64,000 nucleotides of DNA, from IMG/VR virus record IMGVR_UViG_3300036845_000456, positions 1 through 64,000 of that record; one strand, 5' to 3'. The translations under genes and the position numbers were made by a program. This document shows positions 506 to 56,486 of this stretch, one piece after another (within the stretch, counting starts at the first letter, position 1; every line of letters begins with the position of its first letter). The stretch is from a virus. The notes under the pieces were generated by a model that saw only the letters and a program-made list of their open reading frames with translations, was not told where the DNA came from and made no database searches.

Positions 506-512
506 ACACCTG

Positions 513-560
513 CGTCGCCGTCATCGTCATCGGCCTCGCCCTCGTCTTCGTCAACGCCCA
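513..560 (+). repeat. Intergenic mini-array of 8 CGYC-NN hexamers
   Basis: cgtcgc cgtcat cgtcat cggcct cgccct cgtctt cgtcaa cgccca, between the stop at 505 and the ATG at 560. Confidence 0.75.
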
Positions 561-15128: not shown

Positions 15129-16602
15129 TGTGTTGGCGGATGAACTGGGCGACATCGTTGCTCAGTATCGGATGCAATGGGCGCGCGAGAAAGCAGTAAT
15201 CGAGGCGCAAAGCCGCGAGGCCGTTGCCACGCTGCGCGCTGAATTGCTGCAACTGCGCTATTCCTGGGAAGCCGCCTTCCATCAACGCCTCGCCCAACTC
15301 AAGGACGGCGAGCGCGGCGCCCCCGGAATCGATGGCACGCAAGGTCCGCAAGGGCTCCGGGGTGAGCCCGGCGAGCCCGGCGCCCCCGGAGAGCGGGGCG
15401 AGCCCGGTGAGCCCGGACGCAACGGACTCGATGGCCTAGCCGGCGCGATCGGCCTCGCCGGACCGAGCGGCGAGCGGGGCGAGCCCGGGGCCGTCGGCGA
15501 GCGCGGCTTGCAAGGGCCGCAAGGGCTGCCCGGTATCACAGGCGCCCCCGGCATCGCAGGCGAGCGGGGCGCCCCCGGTTTGCAAGGCGAGCGCGGGGAA
15601 CCGGGCGAGCCAGGGCGCAATGGCGCGGACGGCGCCATCGGGCCAGCCGGACTCATGGGGGTTCAAGGTTTGCCGGGCGAGCGAGGTTTGCCCGGGGAGC
15701 GCGGGGAAGCAGGCGAGCCCGGGCGCAATGGCGCCGACGGTATCGCCGGACCGCCCGGGCCGATGGGCCCGCCGGGGCCCACAGGGGCCGCTGGGGAGGC
15801 TATTCGGGGCGAGGTAGGCGAGCCGGGCAGGAACGGCGCGGAAGGCCGCCCGGGGCCGCCTGGGCCACGCGGCGAGCCCGGTTTGGCCGGACCGAAGGGC
15901 GAAACGGTCAAGGGCGACCAGGGCGAGCCCGGAAGAAACGGGCTCGATGGCGCCCAAGGGCCGATCGGGCTGCAAGGACCGCCGGGGCCGATCGGGGAGC
16001 GAGGCGCCCCCGGTCAGAACGGCCGTGACGGCTTGGCCGGGCAAGTCGGCCCGGTCGGCATGCAGGGCCCGCAAGGCGAGCGCGGGGAGCAAGGTCCGCG
16101 CGGCAGCGTCGGGAAAGTCCTGCCGTGGTCGGATCGGATTTTCTACGCCGGGGAACTGGTTACGCACGGCGGCGCGTGCTGGCAGGCGATCAACGACACC
16201 GCGAAAGAACCGACCGCCGTCGGCAAAGACTGGCAAGTCATTGCTGCATCTGGCGCCCCCGGCGCGTCGTTCACGGTGAGAGGCACCTATGACCCGCAGC
16301 AAGCGTACAAAACGCTCGATGTTGTGGTGGTCGATCACGGATGGTTCGTGGCTCGACGCGACAATCCCGGTGCCTGTCCTGGCGGCGGTTGGCAGTCAGG
16401 GCCCGTCGGTAAGCGCGGCGAAAAAGGCATCCCGGGCGAACGCGGCGCCAAAGGCGAGCCGGGCAAAACGGCGGCGCACTGGGTCGGCGTCAAGCTCGAC
16501 GGGTTCGACGTCGTCACGGTGATGTCGGACGGCACCTTCGGCCCGCGCTTTTCACTTGCACCGATGTTCGAGAAGTTCGAGGCCGAGCTACGGAGTCGGT
16601 GA
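15043..16602 (+). CDS. Collagen-like head-associated protein
   Basis: Long Gly-X-Y tract (GERGEPG, GRNG.DG) between a coiled-coil N-terminus and a globular C-terminus. Confidence 0.8.
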
Positions 16603-47809: not shown

Positions 47810-48706
47810 CTAAGACATGAACCTGGAGACATCAGCCAAGATTTCCTCGGCTGACTTCTGCACGACGGCGCGAACGTCATCGTTGTTGCGGAGAACCGGC
47901 GCTTCCTCCGCGCAAAGTTCGTGCTTGATCCGCTCGGTGATCGCGGTCAGCGCCGGATCATCTTGCAGATTGAAGGCTGGCAACAAGTCGGCAAGCTCGC
48001 GTACGTTGGCGACCAGCGAGTCGGTGAAGAACTTGCGGCCTTCGCCTTCGCCGTTGGTCTTGTACTCGCCGAGCTTCTTGGCCATGTGCCCGACCACCTT
48101 GGTGATCTGGTCAACGGTGTCGCGCGTCGAGCGAACCTCCGCTTGCTCGGACGCCGCCGTGATCTCGGCGCGGATGTCGGCAACCGTGTCGGCATCCAGC
48201 ACGTCGGACCGGAAGTCGTCCGCCTCGGGCAGCGGCATGAAGGTCAAGTCGAGCTTGAACTTCGTGCGGATTTCATCGGCGCTCGGGTAGTCTTCGGCCT
48301 TCCACAAGCCGTTGAGTCTCTGCTTGGCTTCCTCCACGAATATCGGATAGTCGCGGCAGAAGTCGTCGGCAGCCGTATGAAAGTCCCGTTTGATCTCGCG
48401 GAACTGGCCGGTGAACTTCGCGTACAGCACATTCGGCAGAATGCGCGGGCCTTCATCGGCCCACGGCTTGGTCATGCGATAGTGCAAGTCGCGCGCCCGG
48501 CTGACCAACTCGGTCAGGCGCTTCAGCCGCTCGGCGTTGAGCAGCAACTTGTTGTAACGCCCGGCGTCGGCGCTCGCATTGTGCGCCTGATTGACTTCGT
48601 CGGTCACCTTCTTATCGAGGCGACGCGCCGTCCACATCGAGATGTTGACGGCGACAAGCACCGCCTTCCGCGACAGCGGCGAGGCGATTTTGGTGTTGGC
48701 TAACAT
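47810..48706 (-). CDS. Helical partner protein of the AAA/VWA module (DUF3150-like)
   Basis: W.ARRLDK, T.PW...G.RILP, DYP..DEIR.KF, LPAFNL..DP.L. Confidence 0.6.
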   Translation of the reverse strand: MLANTKIASPLSRKAVLVAVNISMWTARRLDKKVTDEVNQAHNASADAGRYNKLLLNAERLKRLTELVSRARDLHYRMTKPWADEGPRILPNVLYAKFTGQFREIKRDFHTAADDFCRDYPIFVEEAKQRLNGLWKAEDYPSADEIRTKFKLDLTFMPLPEADDFRSDVLDADTVADIRAEITAASEQAEVRSTRDTVDQITKVVGHMAKKLGEYKTNGEGEGRKFFTDSLVANVRELADLLPAFNLQDDPALTAITERIKHELCAEEAPVLRNNDDVRAVVQKSAEEILADVSRFMS

Positions 48707-48761: not shown

Positions 48762-50333
48762 CTAGGCGTCCGTCCCGACGTCGATCACGTCGCCCCAAGG
48801 CAACGTGCTTTTCAGGTAGGTCACGATGCGAGGGTCGCCATACGCCGCCCAAAGGACGGGCGCCTGCGGTTCCGGGCCAGGGTCGCCAATCTCAAGATCG
48901 GTCAGCGCCACGATCAGCGAGCAGTCTGGATCGTTTTCATCAATCCACTGGAACGCTGGTCGCAAGTCCGTGCCGCCACGGCCGACCGCCTTGAACTCGA
49001 CTTGGTCGCCGTCGAGATAGCGATCGACCGCATTGACCCGCGTGTCGTTGTAGACGACCACGGCTTCCGAGATGATGCCCGCGTCCATCGCCGCCTGAAC
49101 CTCGTTGCCGACTTTGTTCAGGACGTCGTCAGACATGGACAGCGACGTATCAACAAGAAACGCGACTTTGTTGATGCCGTCGCGCTGCGTGCCGGGCAGC
49201 ACGAACCCGGTGTGTGCGAACCGGCGATTCGGTCGGTTCCACGTTTCTGAGCGGCTGGCGCCCGCGTCGAAAAACTGGCGCATTTCTTCGCGCCAATCCT
49301 CGGTCGGCGTCTTGCGCCGCTCAAGTTCCGACTCCCAATGGCCGGGCAAGCAGCCGGCCTTCTTGGCGAGCGCAGCGGCTTGATGCGCGATGACGTCCCA
49401 ATGCGCGTCGAGATCGGGGGCCTGTTCAGCGGGCGCGTCGAGCACGCCACCGCAATCCCAAGCCTGTTGCTCATAGCCGGGGCGCGGCGTAGCATTGCCC
49501 TCCCCGTCAGCGTCTGCGTCCTCGCCCACGTCCTCGCCGACGTCAGCGCCGTCGCCTTCGCCTTCGTTAGTGCCGCCGTCCTCGTCACCGTCGTTGCCCT
49601 CGTCGCCGTCTTCGTTTTCGTCAACGTCGCCGTCACCGCCAGCGCCATCGGCACCGTCGTCGGCATCGCCGTCGTCAACGTCGCCGCCGTCGGCATCGTC
49701 CGCGTCACTGTCTGCGTCACCGTCAGCGTTTGCGTCAGCGGCTTCGTCTTCGTCACCGGCATCGCCGTCGTCACCGTCAGCGTCATCGGCAACGTCGTCG
49801 TCAGCGTCTCCGTCTTCGTTGCTGCCAGCGTCATCGCCATCGTCTGCGTCCACGGCATCGTCTTCGTCACCGCCAGCGTCATCGGCAGCGTCTTCTTGTT
49901 GCTGCTGTTGCTGTTCCTCGATTTCCAAGACGCGGTAGATGTCTTCGGTCGCCATGCCGGCAAACTCGGGACGGTTCAGCACCCAATCGGGGAGCTTGAA
50001 CCCTTCCGCGAGAATGTCAGGGTTGATCGAATAATCGCACGCCTTGTTCCAACGCAGCGGATCGCGCCCACGGCGCCGCGTCGAATGGTGGCGGGCATCG
50101 TGTTCGCTTTCGTGAACTTGGATGCCTTCCAGGAACTCTTGCGACAACTCGCAAACGAATTGCGGGTTGTAGTAGTGTTTGATCGAGTCGGTGGCCATGC
50201 GTGGAATTGACCAGCATGGCACCGGCTCGACGTTCGCGACCAGCACGCCATAAAACTTGCGTGCTTGAATGATGGCCGCGCGCGCCTTCATCACCTTGTC
50301 TTTGGCGACGCGCTCCATTTCGAGGCGGTTCAT
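48762..50333 (-). CDS. Putative metallopeptidase (HExxH) plus VWA-like domain protein with an acidic linker
   Basis: MATD, HESEH, WN.ACDY.IN; VDTSLSM MIDAS-like motif; GRGGTDLRP; TDL. Confidence 0.85.
   Translation of the reverse strand: MNRLEMERVAKDKVMKARAAIIQARKFYGVLVANVEPVPCWSIPRMATDSIKHYYNPQFVCELSQEFLEGIQVHESEHDARHHSTRRRGRDPLRWNKACDYSINPDILAEGFKLPDWVLNRPEFAGMATEDIYRVLEIEEQQQQQQEDAADDAGGDEDDAVDADDGDDAGSNEDGDADDDVADDADGDDGDAGDEDEAADANADGDADSDADDADGGDVDDGDADDGADGAGGDGDVDENEDGDEGNDGDEDGGTNEGEGDGADVGEDVGEDADADGEGNATPRPGYEQQAWDCGGVLDAPAEQAPDLDAHWDVIAHQAAALAKKAGCLPGHWESELERRKTPTEDWREEMRQFFDAGASRSETWNRPNRRFAHTGFVLPGTQRDGINKVAFLVDTSLSMSDDVLNKVGNEVQAAMDAGIISEAVVVYNDTRVNAVDRYLDGDQVEFKAVGRGGTDLRPAFQWIDENDPDCSLIVALTDLEIGDPGPEPQAPVLWAAYGDPRIVTYLKSTLPWGDVIDVGTDA
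49505..49894 (+). repeat. Array of 65 in-register CGYC-NN hexamers (antisense to the VWA gene linker)
   Basis: Parsed by hand: 390 nt with no register slip, e.g. cgtcag cgtctg cgtcct cgccca ... cggcag cgtctt. Confidence 0.85.
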
Positions 50334-50352: not shown

Positions 50353-51384
50353 TTACTGGACAGTCACGTCCGAATTTTCGACCGCCCATTTGCTGTAGGC
50401 GGCGACGTTGGCCAGCTTGTCATCGCGCGACACCGCGTCGGTCACCGTGAGAACTTCGAATTCACGCGGCAGCCGCTTGGCGTAGGCGATCACGTTCGGG
50501 AATGTCTTCCGGTCAGCAAGTCTGGCGATTGCCGTGCACACGGCGTAACGCTCGCTCGGCTCGCTCGGCACTTTGGCCGTTGCCGGGCTGGCCAAGATAT
50601 CGTCAATGTTTGTCAGCGACTGATACATCGCCACAAACGCTTCCATCTCGGACGCCACGGTCTTACCGACCATTGCGGTGAACGCGCGCAAGCGGCGCGC
50701 GGGTGGCTGTTTGATGTAGGGCCCGCAGCGATAGATCGTGCGCGGGTTGGCCGACGCGTTCTGATCGCCGTCGGCGTCGCGGTACAAGCAATCCGGCCGA
50801 AACCGGATGAACGCGACAAGCTCGGGCGCCAAGTTGGTCGCCTTGGCGTGGGCAATCCACGACGGCACGTCCACAATCATCGTGTAGTGGGCGAAGCGGC
50901 GCCGCAGCGGGACCGGCATCTGAATGACGGCGCGCGAGTCCTTGCTGCGGTTGCCCGCCGCCAGGATCACGCAATTGTCGGGCAGCGTGTAGTCGCCGAC
51001 GCGGCGATCGAGCACGAGTTGCATCATGACGGACATCATTTGCATCGTGCCGGTGTTGATCTCGTCAATGAACAACAGCGTCGGGCCGTCGCTGCCGTCA
51101 GACTTCGGCAGTTCCTTCGGCGCCAGCCACACCGTCGTGCCGCTGGCGAGATCGGGCACGGGCAAGCCGCGCACGTCCACGCTTTCGCGGATGTTGGTGT
51201 GGAAGGGGATCAACTTACTGGCCATCTTTTGCGCAATCTGATGCGCAAGTTCGGACTTGCCGATGCCGCTCGCGCCCCACAACATGACGGGCTGGCCTTC
51301 GAGCAGGTGCATGATGATTTGATCGACCGCGTCGAGCGCGGTGATCGCGTTCTCGACTTCGAGGTTAATGTCGTTGGTAGGCAT
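50353..51384 (-). CDS. MoxR-like AAA+ ATPase
   Basis: Walker A GASGIGKS, Walker B LLFIDE, AAGN sensor, PLRRRF arginine finger. Confidence 0.9.
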   Translation of the reverse strand: MPTNDINLEVENAITALDAVDQIIMHLLEGQPVMLWGASGIGKSELAHQIAQKMASKLIPFHTNIRESVDVRGLPVPDLASGTTVWLAPKELPKSDGSDGPTLLFIDEINTGTMQMMSVMMQLVLDRRVGDYTLPDNCVILAAGNRSKDSRAVIQMPVPLRRRFAHYTMIVDVPSWIAHAKATNLAPELVAFIRFRPDCLYRDADGDQNASANPRTIYRCGPYIKQPPARRLRAFTAMVGKTVASEMEAFVAMYQSLTNIDDILASPATAKVPSEPSERYAVCTAIARLADRKTFPNVIAYAKRLPREFEVLTVTDAVSRDDKLANVAAYSKWAVENSDVTVQ

Positions 51385-54535: not shown

Positions 54536-54762
54536 GCACTACTGAGATTGAGCGCCCGCACGTGCAGACTATCGATGATGCCGATCTGGTCTTGCTCGGC
54601 ATGCTGGTCGATGCCCACGGCTTGCCGGAAGTGCTATGGGGACTGGCGCGTGTTTGCTCGGATCGCGCGGAAGCCATCGCCAAGGACGACGCACACCGGG
54701 CCAATGAGTGGATGTCGCATTCGGTGCAATTAGATGATCTCGCTGCCGAGATCGGAGAATGA
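54532..54762 (+). CDS. Hypothetical protein
   Basis: LVDAHGL..VL..LA.VC...AE. Confidence 0.6.
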   Translation: MSTTEIERPHVQTIDDADLVLLGMLVDAHGLPEVLWGLARVCSDRAEAIAKDDAHRANEWMSHSVQLDDLAAEIGE

Positions 54763-55186
54763 ATTGCGCGACGTGTTGATCATCGCGCCGCTGGCGTTCG
54801 GCGTCGGATTCTTTATCGGGGATTCCTGGCAAGACTCTGCGCCGGTCGCGGTGTCCAGTGGCGGCCTCACGATCGTGCAGCGGTTGGCGCCAACGCCATC
54901 GTCAACGCCACCGCCATCGCCGACGCCCACGTCAACGTCTACGCCTTCGATCTCGGCCTCGCCCACGCCGTCGCCAGCGTCAACGTCTCTGTCTGCGGCC
55001 ACGGCTACGTCATCGCCTCCGTCAACGTCCACGTCAACGCCTTCGCCTTCGCCATCGCCAGCGTCCTCGCCTTCGTCTGCGGCAGCGTCCTCGCCTTCGT
55101 CAACGCGCAATATCTGCTCGCCCGGGTGGCGCGAGAATTTCTATCGCCACGGAGTTCTGCACTGGCGGTGTCGCTATGGCCGATGA
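54734..55186 (+). CDS. Membrane-anchored protein whose S/T/P linker is encoded by a hexamer array
   Basis: Hydrophobic N-terminus, S/T/P tract, C-terminal IC.PGW...HWRCR; start may be TTG at 54764. Confidence 0.5.
   Translation: MISLPRSENELRDVLIIAPLAFGVGFFIGDSWQDSAPVAVSSGGLTIVQRLAPTPSSTPPPSPTPTSTSTPSISASPTPSPASTSLSAATATSSPPSTSTSTPSPSPSPASSPSSAAASSPSSTRNICSPGWRENFYRHGVLHWRCRYGR
54888..55103 (+). repeat. Array of 36 CGYC-NN hexamers
   Basis: cgccaa cgccat cgtcaa cgccac ... cgtcct cgcctt cgtcaa, 216 nt in register. Confidence 0.9.
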
Positions 55187-55370
55187 TCAATGGACCGCGC
55201 AAGACAAGTTGGCCTGCATCGAGCGCGAATTGCGCTACCGGCTGCGCGTCTATCCGCGCCGGGTGGCCGAAGGCAAAATGACAGAACAGCAAATGCGGCG
55301 CGAGATTTCCATCATGGAAGCAATCGTCGCCGATCTGCGGGCCAATGCTGAGAGGGACCGGTTGATATGA
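55176..55370 (+). CDS. Small phage hypothetical protein
   Basis: KLACIEREL.YR.RVYPRRVAEGKM...REI..MEAI. Confidence 0.7.
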   Translation: MADDQWTAQDKLACIERELRYRLRVYPRRVAEGKMTEQQMRREISIMEAIVADLRANAERDRLI

Positions 55371-55502
55371 CGGATCAGGAAACGGAAACGGGATACGGGC
55401 TGACGGTCGGCTTTGATCCGCTGTTGCGCAGCTTGCGCCGCCATTTTCTCAAACCACGCTACGACATTCCTGATAAGACAACCGCGCGCGCCATCAAAAC
55501 TT

Positions 55503-55808
55503 CGCCGACGTCCTCGTCAGCGTCTACGCCGACGGCCTCGTCATCGTCATCGCCCACGTCAACGCTCTCGCCACCGCCCCTGCCTTCGCCAACGTCGTCG
55601 CCATCGTCACCGCCCTCGCCAGCGCCAACGTCTTCGCCCTCGGTGCGTCCGTGATCCAGCATCTACGGCATCGACTATGTCCTCGTTACCGTCATCGTCT
55701 CCGTCAATGCCCGCGCTAGAGCCGACGCCACCGCCTACGCCGACGCCAACGCCCTCGTCATCGCCGACGCACCGTCAACGCCTTCGCCGACGTCTTCGCC
55801 AACGTTCT
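55503..55808 (+). repeat. Array of about 48 CGYC-NN hexamers directly upstream of the RAMP gene (candidate ncRNA)
   Basis: 23 units at 55503-55640, a short break, 18 units at 55660-55767, one 5-nt unit, 6 units at 55773-55808; ends 21 nt before the ATG. Confidence 0.9.
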
Positions 55809-55829: not shown

Positions 55830-56486
55830 ATGCAGCGCGCCTACCAAATCGCATTCATCAAAGGCTACATCGCGCATCCGTACTGGCCGCAGCGCGAGCG
55901 GCTGATCAACATCCAGAAGGAGTCCGGGACCAAGCGCGTGCGCTCGGAGGAAAAGCGCGTCAAGGTCTTGCGCGACTATCTGGCCACCAAAAACATGAGC
56001 ATGGCCGATTACGAAGCGCTTGAGGAAGAAGCCGATCGCCAGTTCTATACGGCGGCCGATCTCGACAATGCCGACGGCCACGACACGACCGAGATTGTGA
56101 TCCCGGCGCATCAGATATACGGCATGGCGGCGCAAGCTTGCGGTCTGGCCTCAAGTTCGATCCGCATTGCCCGCGCCGAAAATCTGCGCACGGTCCTGAC
56201 CGTGTCCGACATATTCACCGGCAAGCACAAAGCAGACGGCGTATGGGAGCGTTTCGTCGTCGTCACCGCTGGCGCCGGCAACAAGCTGAGCAATCAAAGA
56301 GCGCTGCGCAGCAACGAGTATGTTGGTCCGTTTCAGGCGACATTTGAAGTGAAGTTCAGCGAGGAAGTCATCGATCCGAAAAAGGTTGACGATTTTCTCG
56401 GCTTCTGTGGCCGCGAGATCGGCGTTGGCGCCAGCCGCAAGCTCGGTTGGGGCCGCTTCGAGATCGGCAAGGCCAAAGCCAAATGA
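55830..56486 (+). CDS. Solitary RAMP-superfamily (Cas7/Csm3-like) protein
   Basis: IVIPAHQIYG corresponds to the RAMP IPGSS.KG motif; C-terminal Gly-rich loop IGVGASRKLGWGRFEI (G.G..R..G.GRF); 218 aa; RBS gggag. Confidence 0.75.
   Translation: MQRAYQIAFIKGYIAHPYWPQRERLINIQKESGTKRVRSEEKRVKVLRDYLATKNMSMADYEALEEEADRQFYTAADLDNADGHDTTEIVIPAHQIYGMAAQACGLASSSIRIARAENLRTVLTVSDIFTGKHKADGVWERFVVVTAGAGNKLSNQRALRSNEYVGPFQATFEVKFSEEVIDPKKVDDFLGFCGREIGVGASRKLGWGRFEIGKAKAK

Follow-up and report, generated by a model that had tools for sequence, protein, structure and literature searches.

Does a stretch of coding DNA that spells a long array of six-base units on its other strand carry a second, array-type code, or is it the ordinary low-complexity spacer of a phage protein? 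The question is raised by a DUF2201 gene within the first 64 kb (the window, the whole stretch that was analyzed) of a soil phage record that is complete at 80,967 bp and has a G+C content of 60%. The gene, its neighbors and the array are:

48762-50333, minus strand: DUF2201 metallopeptidase-VWA gene, 523 amino acids, with matches to PF13203 (DUF2201_N, E = 7e-32) and PF09967 (DUF2201, VWA-like, E = 2e-19)
49505-49894, minus strand: acidic D/G/A/E linker, codons 147-276 of the VWA gene, GNN codons alternating with GRC, GCC or AAC
49505-49894, plus strand: CGYC-NN hexamer array, 65 units (49 strict and 16 with a one-base variant of the core), phase unbroken
50353-51384, minus strand: AAA_5/MoxR-like ATPase gene, the partner of the VWA gene, which it precedes; present in 41 of 41 homologous loci
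47810-48706, minus strand: DUF3150-like gene (below the Pfam cut-off), third member of the cassette, after the VWA gene; present in 40 loci

The three-gene cassette of ATPase, VWA and DUF3150-like genes recurs in all 40-41 homologous phage loci that were fetched. The linker sits in frame between the PF13203 and PF09967 domains and is rich in D, E and G, as is expected of a DUF2201 linker. A megablast search of the 46-58 kb region against GenBank phages gave no match, an Rfam search over the whole genome gave no family and a tRNA scan of the last 17 kb of the genome gave no tRNA.

An earlier note on this DNA had described the plus strand of the linker as 65 consecutive in-register CGYC-NN units. 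The register does hold over 65 units, but the strict motif is present in only 49 of them and the other 16 are variants that are each off at a single core base (CGGC in 8 units, CGTT in 4, TGCC in 3, and TGTC in 1). Conservation of the core positions is 94% for C1, 100% for G2 (65/65), 88% for Y3, and 94% for C4. The NN positions use 13 of the 16 possible dinucleotides (entropy of 3.36 bits), there are 31 distinct units among the 65 with one adjacent identical pair, and TRF reports higher-order periods of 30 and 48 for the region.

Within the gene frame, the linker codons fall into a fixed and a variable phase, and the alternation of C-ending and GNN codons that had been noticed was borne out by the counts: the fixed phase consists of GAC (38), GGC (15), GCC (8), and AAC (4), so that 65 out of 65 codons end in C, and 61 out of 65 codons of the variable phase are GNN. 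Every residue of the fixed phase is written exclusively with its C-ending codon (38/38, 15/15, 8/8, and 4/4, in the same order). In the genome as a whole, with usage taken from rough calls of long genes, GAC accounts for 54% of Asp, GGC for 63% of Gly, GCC for 39% of Ala, and AAC for 60% of Asn codons; arithmetic on this usage gives a joint chance of ∼5e-18 for 65 C-ending codons out of 65. The avoidance of GCC among the roughly 15 Ala codons of the variable phase was likewise found as described (GCT 10, GCA 4, GCG 1, GCC 0): the rare codons GCT and GCA are used for 14 out of 15 residues, compared with a combined genome usage of 18% (chance ∼5e-10).

The codon-shuffle test that had been proposed was run with three nulls of 5000 trials each: a codon shuffle, a synonymous shuffle in which the protein is kept, and a redraw of the codons from genome usage. 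In-register CGYC was observed 48 times (script count), as compared with a mean of 31.2 (maximum 39) for the codon shuffle, 38.4 (maximum 44) for the synonymous shuffle, and 26.8 (maximum 38) for the genome-usage redraw. The gap in C-ending codons between the two phases was 0.80, and the null maxima were 0.34, 0.55, and 0.43, respectively; shuffling fails to reproduce the periodicity. The residues display the same asymmetry, with all Glu (13) and Val (6) of the linker located in the variable phase. Glu is barred from the fixed phase, whose codons all have to end in C, and since an acidic spacer should be indifferent to the choice between Asp and Glu, the phase confinement is the amino-acid signal of a nucleotide rule. 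Taken together, these results support the conclusion that the silent sites and the D/E choice obey a nucleotide rule for which the protein and the codon usage do not account.

All VWA homologues have an acidic linker that is rich in D, E and G and variable in length. Among 27 distant homologues for which the DNA was in hand (up to ∼55% identity), the third-position alternation reached a z of at most 3.1 as compared with 14.8 in the present linker; their antisense CGYC runs are weak and switch phase, with about half of the homologues giving 7-9 of 12 units. The 25 more distant homologues listed contain 0-2 Val per linker. These linkers are acidic yet unphased, in agreement with the earlier statement that acidic VWA linkers need no two-codon periodicity. 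A homologue of the Cas7-like gene encoded further downstream in the window (below) was absent from 10 phage records of distant VWA homologues, of which 6 are at least 96% complete (a positive control was run), and the proposed comparison with phages that lack this RAMP gene found that their VWA homologues are not equally periodic. PF13203 was not found in five phages with the Cas7-like gene, and the comparison set of VWA linkers from phages with the RAMP gene therefore consists of the present clade only.

That clade includes four close relatives (P0002-P0005) in which the flanks of the linker are 87-98% identical and the linkers themselves differ greatly in sequence and length. E, K, Q and Val are nevertheless held mainly in one phase of these linkers (11:0, 12:3, 18:1, and 11:1), with Val by itself distributed from 6:0 to 7:1; the state of the silent sites in P0002-P0005 is read from the protein phase alone. 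As judged from the sequences compared, the two-codon pattern is specific to this clade, where it has outlived extensive turnover of the linker. A metagenome scan for further close relatives, based on low-complexity peptide patterns, returned one distant locus, and the sequence runs that contain this stretch are from soil DNA only.

The core of the linker array recurs on the same strand in six other arrays of the genome and in none on the minus strand. The arrays that bear on the argument, and the gene beside which some of them lie, are:

507-560, plus strand: mini-array of 9 units, lying after a stop codon and ahead of the next ATG
54888-55109, plus strand: CGYC-NN array of 37 units upstream of the Cas7-like gene
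55503-55640, plus strand: CGYC-NN array of 23 units
55660-55808, plus strand: CGYC-NN array that is shifted by 1 nt and reaches the RBS of the Cas7-like gene
55830-56486, plus strand: Cas7-like (Vipr-like) RAMP gene, 218 amino acids, of a family flanked by CGYC-NN arrays
69786-70172, plus strand: CGYC-NN array beyond the window

The genome also contains a canonical GGY-NN pentamer region at 75.6-77.1 kb on the minus strand; the linker array is located 5.9 kb from the Cas7-like gene and ∼26 kb from the pentamer locus. None of the three sense frames of a CGYC-NN array contains a stop codon, and open reading frames through such arrays therefore prove little. On the antisense strand only the GNN-GRC frame is always stop-free; it spells D, G, A, E and V and is the frame that the VWA gene uses. 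An overlapping plus-strand gene in the (A/V)-X frame (open reading frame 49338-50210) was considered and rejected: its flanks resemble antisense junk, and the (A/V)-X frame is closed just before the 70-kb array.

The product of the Cas7-like gene has 288 homologues. Folding with the alignment gave a model with a pLDDT of 91 (38 for a single-sequence fold), and the best structural matches of the model are type VII Cas7, Csm3, Cmr4, and Cas7-11 (E from 2e-6, probability 1.00); the predicted structure of the protein is that of a Cas7 fold. CGYC-NN arrays adjoin the Cas7-like gene, on its strand, in ∼18 of 20 other viral loci (homologues of 37-64% identity), where they reach the RBS of the gene or begin directly after its stop codon. 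Strand counts of array matches in five whole records were 127:0, 26:0, 25:0, 24:0, and 3:0, and the arrays lie on the strand of the Cas7-like gene in all four records where the position of the gene was worked out. The linker array shares the strand of the Cas7-like gene as well; it neither adjoins that gene nor follows the local direction of transcription. Its minor core variants (CGGC, TGCC, and CGTT/CGCT) recur in 639 units from 17 other phages, in which G2 is near-invariant. The earlier linking of this array with the 55-kb arrays and a genuine Cas7-like protein holds in the light of the shared code and strand, the predicted fold and the flanking arrays.

Within the array, Y3 is T in 65% of the units (giving Asp), making CGTC more common than in the other arrays, and N6 is A (giving Val) in 9% as compared with 31-37% in the other arrays, with N6 = T raised. 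The excess of CGTC, the deficit of N6 = A and the excess of N6 = T are all in the direction expected of a protein that requires Asp and Glu and tolerates Val poorly.

An IMG/VR scan for ten perfect units matched at least 119 stretches. Only 2 of the 80 loci returned contain the Cas7-like gene, and nearly all the others consist of simple repeats, for example (CGTCAG)n or (GCC)n. The NN entropy, computed per 12 units, was 2.73 bits for the linker array, similar to the arrays at Cas7-like loci (n = 34, median 2.84, IQR 2.69-2.98) and far from the generic IMG/VR arrays (n = 106, median 1.02). Adjacent identical units make up 2% of the linker array, 5% of the arrays at Cas7-like loci, and 33% of the generic arrays. 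Four generic hits reached at least 2.6 bits, three of them from contigs that also carry the Cas7-like gene and one a short Pro/Ser tail.

Array turnover was observed in several places. In other phages with the Cas7-like gene, arrays also occur in frame within real genes, as in L043-L045 and L063, where one is contained in the Pro/Thr-rich linker that separates the RecT domain from a C-terminal region. L044 and L045 are ∼98-99% identical across RecT, but an 11-unit indel and five substitutions separate their embedded arrays, each substitution falling at unit position 3, 5 or 6. Four soil runs contain relatives, with arrays that differ by indels (array reads map to more than one array), and in all four a CGCCAG unit has been inserted at 55586. 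Tracts of Gly-X in L062 are dipeptide-periodic repeats of another kind.

Expression signals and targets were searched for around the linker array. A promoter scan found no sigma-70-like promoter on the plus strand, and terminator-like sites around the array are at chance level. No convincing leader or 3′ tail is common to this and the other arrays, the sequence downstream being the antisense of conserved coding sequence; a 9-mer, CTTCCGCGA, is found downstream of three arrays at differing distances. The linker array lies antisense to a minus-strand gene cluster, whereas the other arrays are co-oriented with local transcription, including the oppositely oriented array of L052, which leads a minus-strand gene. 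A +1 junction of the CGCACC|G kind that is found at other array ends is absent from the linker array. NN strings at spacings of 2-6 searched against 2.1 Mb of local DNA gave self-matches only, without excess, and two IMG/VR scans under a 1-nt skip rule, covering one of 56 possible windows, gave a single 10-unit match in a contig of 28% GC that did not extend.

The background against which these arrays can be read is the VIPR system of phages, which consists of a Cas7-like Vipr protein and RNAs made of GGY-NN pentamers, whose NN bases read the DNA with a 1-nt skip; the RNAs (vrRNAs) comprise 9-16 units and a 3′ tail, and the pentanucleotide motif is present in all types I-VII (bioRxiv 10.64898/2026.04.26.720920). 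Orphan VIPR arrays are described in a further report (bioRxiv 10.64898/2026.10.15.759431). By analogy, the CGYC-NN family has the look of VIPR guide arrays built on six-base units. The reading that we favor, tentatively and at somewhat less than even confidence, is that the stretch represents an orphan array, belonging to a six-base VIPR-like system and under constraint of its own, which has been overprinted on a tolerant linker in antisense. On this reading the minus strand encodes the flexible acidic segment that joins the metallopeptidase-like domain to the VWA domain, and the plus strand is a member of the CGYC-NN array family; an orphan array may have recombined into, or been imposed on, a linker that tolerated it through GNN-GRC, the sole antisense frame that is always open. 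If the plus strand is transcribed, protomers of the 55830-56486 protein might bind one six-base unit each, gripping CGYC and presenting NN; plus-strand transcription, protein binding and guide function of the linker array are steps that we infer. The dual use that the earlier note had proposed stands at the level of constraint, and none of its three suggested roles (guide reservoir, platform for the RAMP protein, mRNA partner) was singled out.

How much function the orphan array has is the point on which the most serious alternatives turn. That the same bases serve as guide array and protein linker, the antisense array being expressed and loaded on the Cas7-like protein, is possible but doubtful: every other linker residue would then be set by the NN bases that specify targets, and the presence of Val and of rare codons in an acidic spacer would be accounted for, but the length of 65 units as compared with 9-16, the antisense position and the signals and target that were not found count against a working guide array. 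An explanation that needs no such role, and which we regard as unlikely to about the same degree, is that array DNA spreads as units are duplicated, deleted and recombined, and that it fell into a tolerant linker as a by-product, the pattern lasting through renewal by turnover or because the insertion is young. Whole-unit changes between near-identical phages (the 11-unit indel of L044/L045 and CGCCAG at 55586), the arrays in frame within another real gene (RecT in L043-L045 and L063) and the missing expression signals around the linker copy fit this explanation. It is less easily reconciled with the comparison of unit order, in which the linker array shares no multi-unit string with the other arrays beyond a unit-shuffle null, so that no recent copying is indicated, or with the persistence of the phase rule in relatives whose linkers are almost unalignable, which requires ongoing constraint or renewal.

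The remaining alternatives dispense with an array in the linker or assign its bases to another partner. An ordinary acidic linker could have grown by hexamer slippage of the GAT-GAC type, unrelated to the Cas7-like system and resembling an array only since the antisense of GAC-GNN is NNC-GTC. Acidic linkers in all homologues, the weak antisense CGYC runs in about half of the distant ones, the TRF periods of 30 and 48 and dipeptide-periodic repeats elsewhere (Gly-X in L062) are in its favor, and agreement in strand with the Cas7-like gene is a one-in-two event. We nonetheless consider it improbable. A slippage-born repeat should have few unit types and even decay at its silent sites, and the linker array has neither: slippage repeats in IMG/VR differ from it in both entropy (1.02 vs 2.73 bits) and adjacent identical units (33% vs 2%), neutral decay is incompatible with 65 fixed third bases out of 65 where about half of the other silent positions have changed (∼1e-7, a rough F81-type estimate), and Glu is barred from one phase only in a protein whose distant homologues have unphased linkers. 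Very improbable, in our estimate, is a functional VWA mRNA whose (NN-GRCG)n segment pairs with plus-strand array RNAs, sponging them or coupling VWA expression to their level. Complementarity of the core is inherent, and the predicted duplexes between 55-kb array RNA and the linker (-175 vs -109 ± 23 and -264 vs -162 ± 32 kcal/mol) are ∼3 sd stronger than those with random 390-nt minus-strand windows; such pairing would, however, be register-independent and unspecific, translation would strip the duplexes, and according to one report the fixed motif of VIPR is buried in protein and unable to pair (bioRxiv 10.64898/2026.04.26.720927). Finally, the linker might act as double-stranded DNA, as a binding or decoy site for a six-base ribonucleoprotein, for example to let the VWA cassette regulate itself. 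The report on orphan arrays (bioRxiv 10.64898/2026.10.15.759431) describes decoy sites as well as DNA binding and transcriptional repression by VIPR complexes, but the targets known so far have a 3-base periodicity that NN sets, with no need of the fixed motif, and the NN strings of the 55-kb arrays match the linker at no spacing of 2-6, leaving this explanation scarcely credible.

The VIPR arrays described to date are non-coding, are built of five-base units and adjoin vipr genes; here a six-base array-type code is maintained within a bona fide gene, and the dual constraint can be measured in the frozen silent sites, the choice of rare codons and the phase confinement of Glu and Val. If the linker copy is expressed, open reading frames can conceal guide arrays from array finders and gene callers alike, a nucleic-acid code can shape low-complexity protein linkers, and surveys of VIPR-like systems should cover coding sequence on both strands. 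Were it a mere by-product, as in the explanation by spreading array DNA, it would still be a record of the way in which these arrays spread and of the frames in which they are tolerated.

Compared with known systems, the linker array has partial counterparts of several kinds. With hexanucleotide microsatellites and dipeptide repeats born of slippage it shares the six-base period and whole-unit indels, but it is far more diverse (31 distinct units out of 65, one adjacent identical pair, 2.73 vs 1.02 bits). Variable regions of DGRs are similar in that fixed and variable positions alternate and never make stops; assignment to this class was rejected, the complete 81-kb genome having no reverse transcriptase (no RVT_1 match) and no template repeat of matching length. 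Linkers of DUF2201/CobT-like VWA proteins occupy the same place between the N-terminal and VWA domains and are likewise rich in D, E and G and variable in length, but distant ones are unphased and essentially free of Val, whereas here the hexamer rule sets silent sites and residues. The CGYC-NN family arrays of this genome and of L043-L062 resemble the linker copy in core, tolerated variants, NN diversity and strand; the linker copy differs in being distant from the gene, locally antisense, devoid of +1 phase junctions and skewed at Y3 and N6 toward Asp and Glu codons. VIPR itself differs in its five-base GGY-NN unit (six-base CGYC-NN in the linker), in vrRNAs of 9-16 units with a conserved 3′ tail (65 unbroken units without a shared tail in the linker), and in non-coding arrays that lie beside vipr, whereas the linker array lies inside the DUF2201 gene, antisense and 5.9 kb from the RAMP gene. 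Both, however, are phage-borne tandem arrays of short units that combine a fixed motif with a hypervariable dinucleotide, both occur with a small Cas7-like RAMP protein, and in both the arrays turn over rapidly between close relatives.

Further CGYC-NN arrays, in-register hexamers of a fixed CGYC and two free bases, are located in other parts of this genome, including the part beyond the window (L001, genome coordinates in brackets), and at loci of other phages that carry a homologue of the Cas7-like gene.

Window 507-560: mini-array of nine units between a stop codon (503-505) and the next ATG (560).
L001:5786-6172 (69786-70172): a 13-unit and a 53-unit array with a mutual offset of 3 nt.
L043:7087-7230, L044:7013-7132, L045:2463-2648 and L063:2042-2123: in-frame arrays in RecT-type genes.
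L052:5291-5464: array in the opposite orientation to the Cas7-like gene, immediately upstream of a small minus-strand zinc-ribbon-like gene.

The mini-array is apparently non-coding and occupies the position where a ribosome-binding site would be expected. The 13- and 53-unit arrays are found near the 5' end of a plus-strand open frame of 643 aa (69662-71593) for which no match was obtained in Pfam or PHROG. In each of the four RecT-type genes, the array encodes a Pro/Thr/Ser-rich linker that is followed by a C-terminal region, and the arrays of L044 and L045 are distinguished by an 11-unit indel. Since the L052 array opposes the Cas7-like gene and precedes a minus-strand gene, array orientation may be set by local transcription instead of by genome strand.

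Arrays close to the Cas7-like gene are also spanned by small open frames.

Window 54734-55186 and 55367-55654, plus strand: two small open frames in which the arrays are read as Pro/Thr/Ser-rich tails.

One of the two frames has a hydrophobic helix at its N-terminus. The other begins within an ATGA that it shares with the gene before it (55176-55370, phrog_19667). Both may be candidate genes or may merely be open by default.

Long coding tracts of Gly-X dipeptide repeats (GGC-NNC) lie directly upstream of the Cas7-like gene homologue in another phage (L062:7698-9060). Their antisense resembles a degenerate CGYC array, and dipeptide repeats are therefore able to imitate the CGYC pattern. Repeats observed in the window itself include collagen-like GGN-rich triplet repeats (Gly-X-Y type, periods 9, 18, and 27) within the structural region (15364-15864 and 16414-16478) and a tandem repeat of 2.7 copies of a 60-nt unit with 85% identity (1612-1773).

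A shift of register by one base, in which CGCACC is followed by G, was observed at window 55768-55775 and at array ends in five other phage loci (L043, L044, L045, L047, and L052). By analogy, this shift may represent a unit junction akin to the 1-nt overlaps in published staggered vrRNA arrays. The phage from which the window comes also carries a second type of array.

L001:11586-13086 (75586-77086), minus strand: approximately 1.5 kb of GGY-NN pentamer arrays.

The pentamer arrays are located downstream of two minus-strand genes (77222-77758 and 77765-78631), and the region is a canonical VIPR-type locus within the genome that contains the CGYC-NN arrays. The 288-aa protein of this locus aligns weakly with the 218-aa Cas7-like protein (19% over 180 aa), and within this weak alignment the two proteins share a Gly-rich C-terminal loop.
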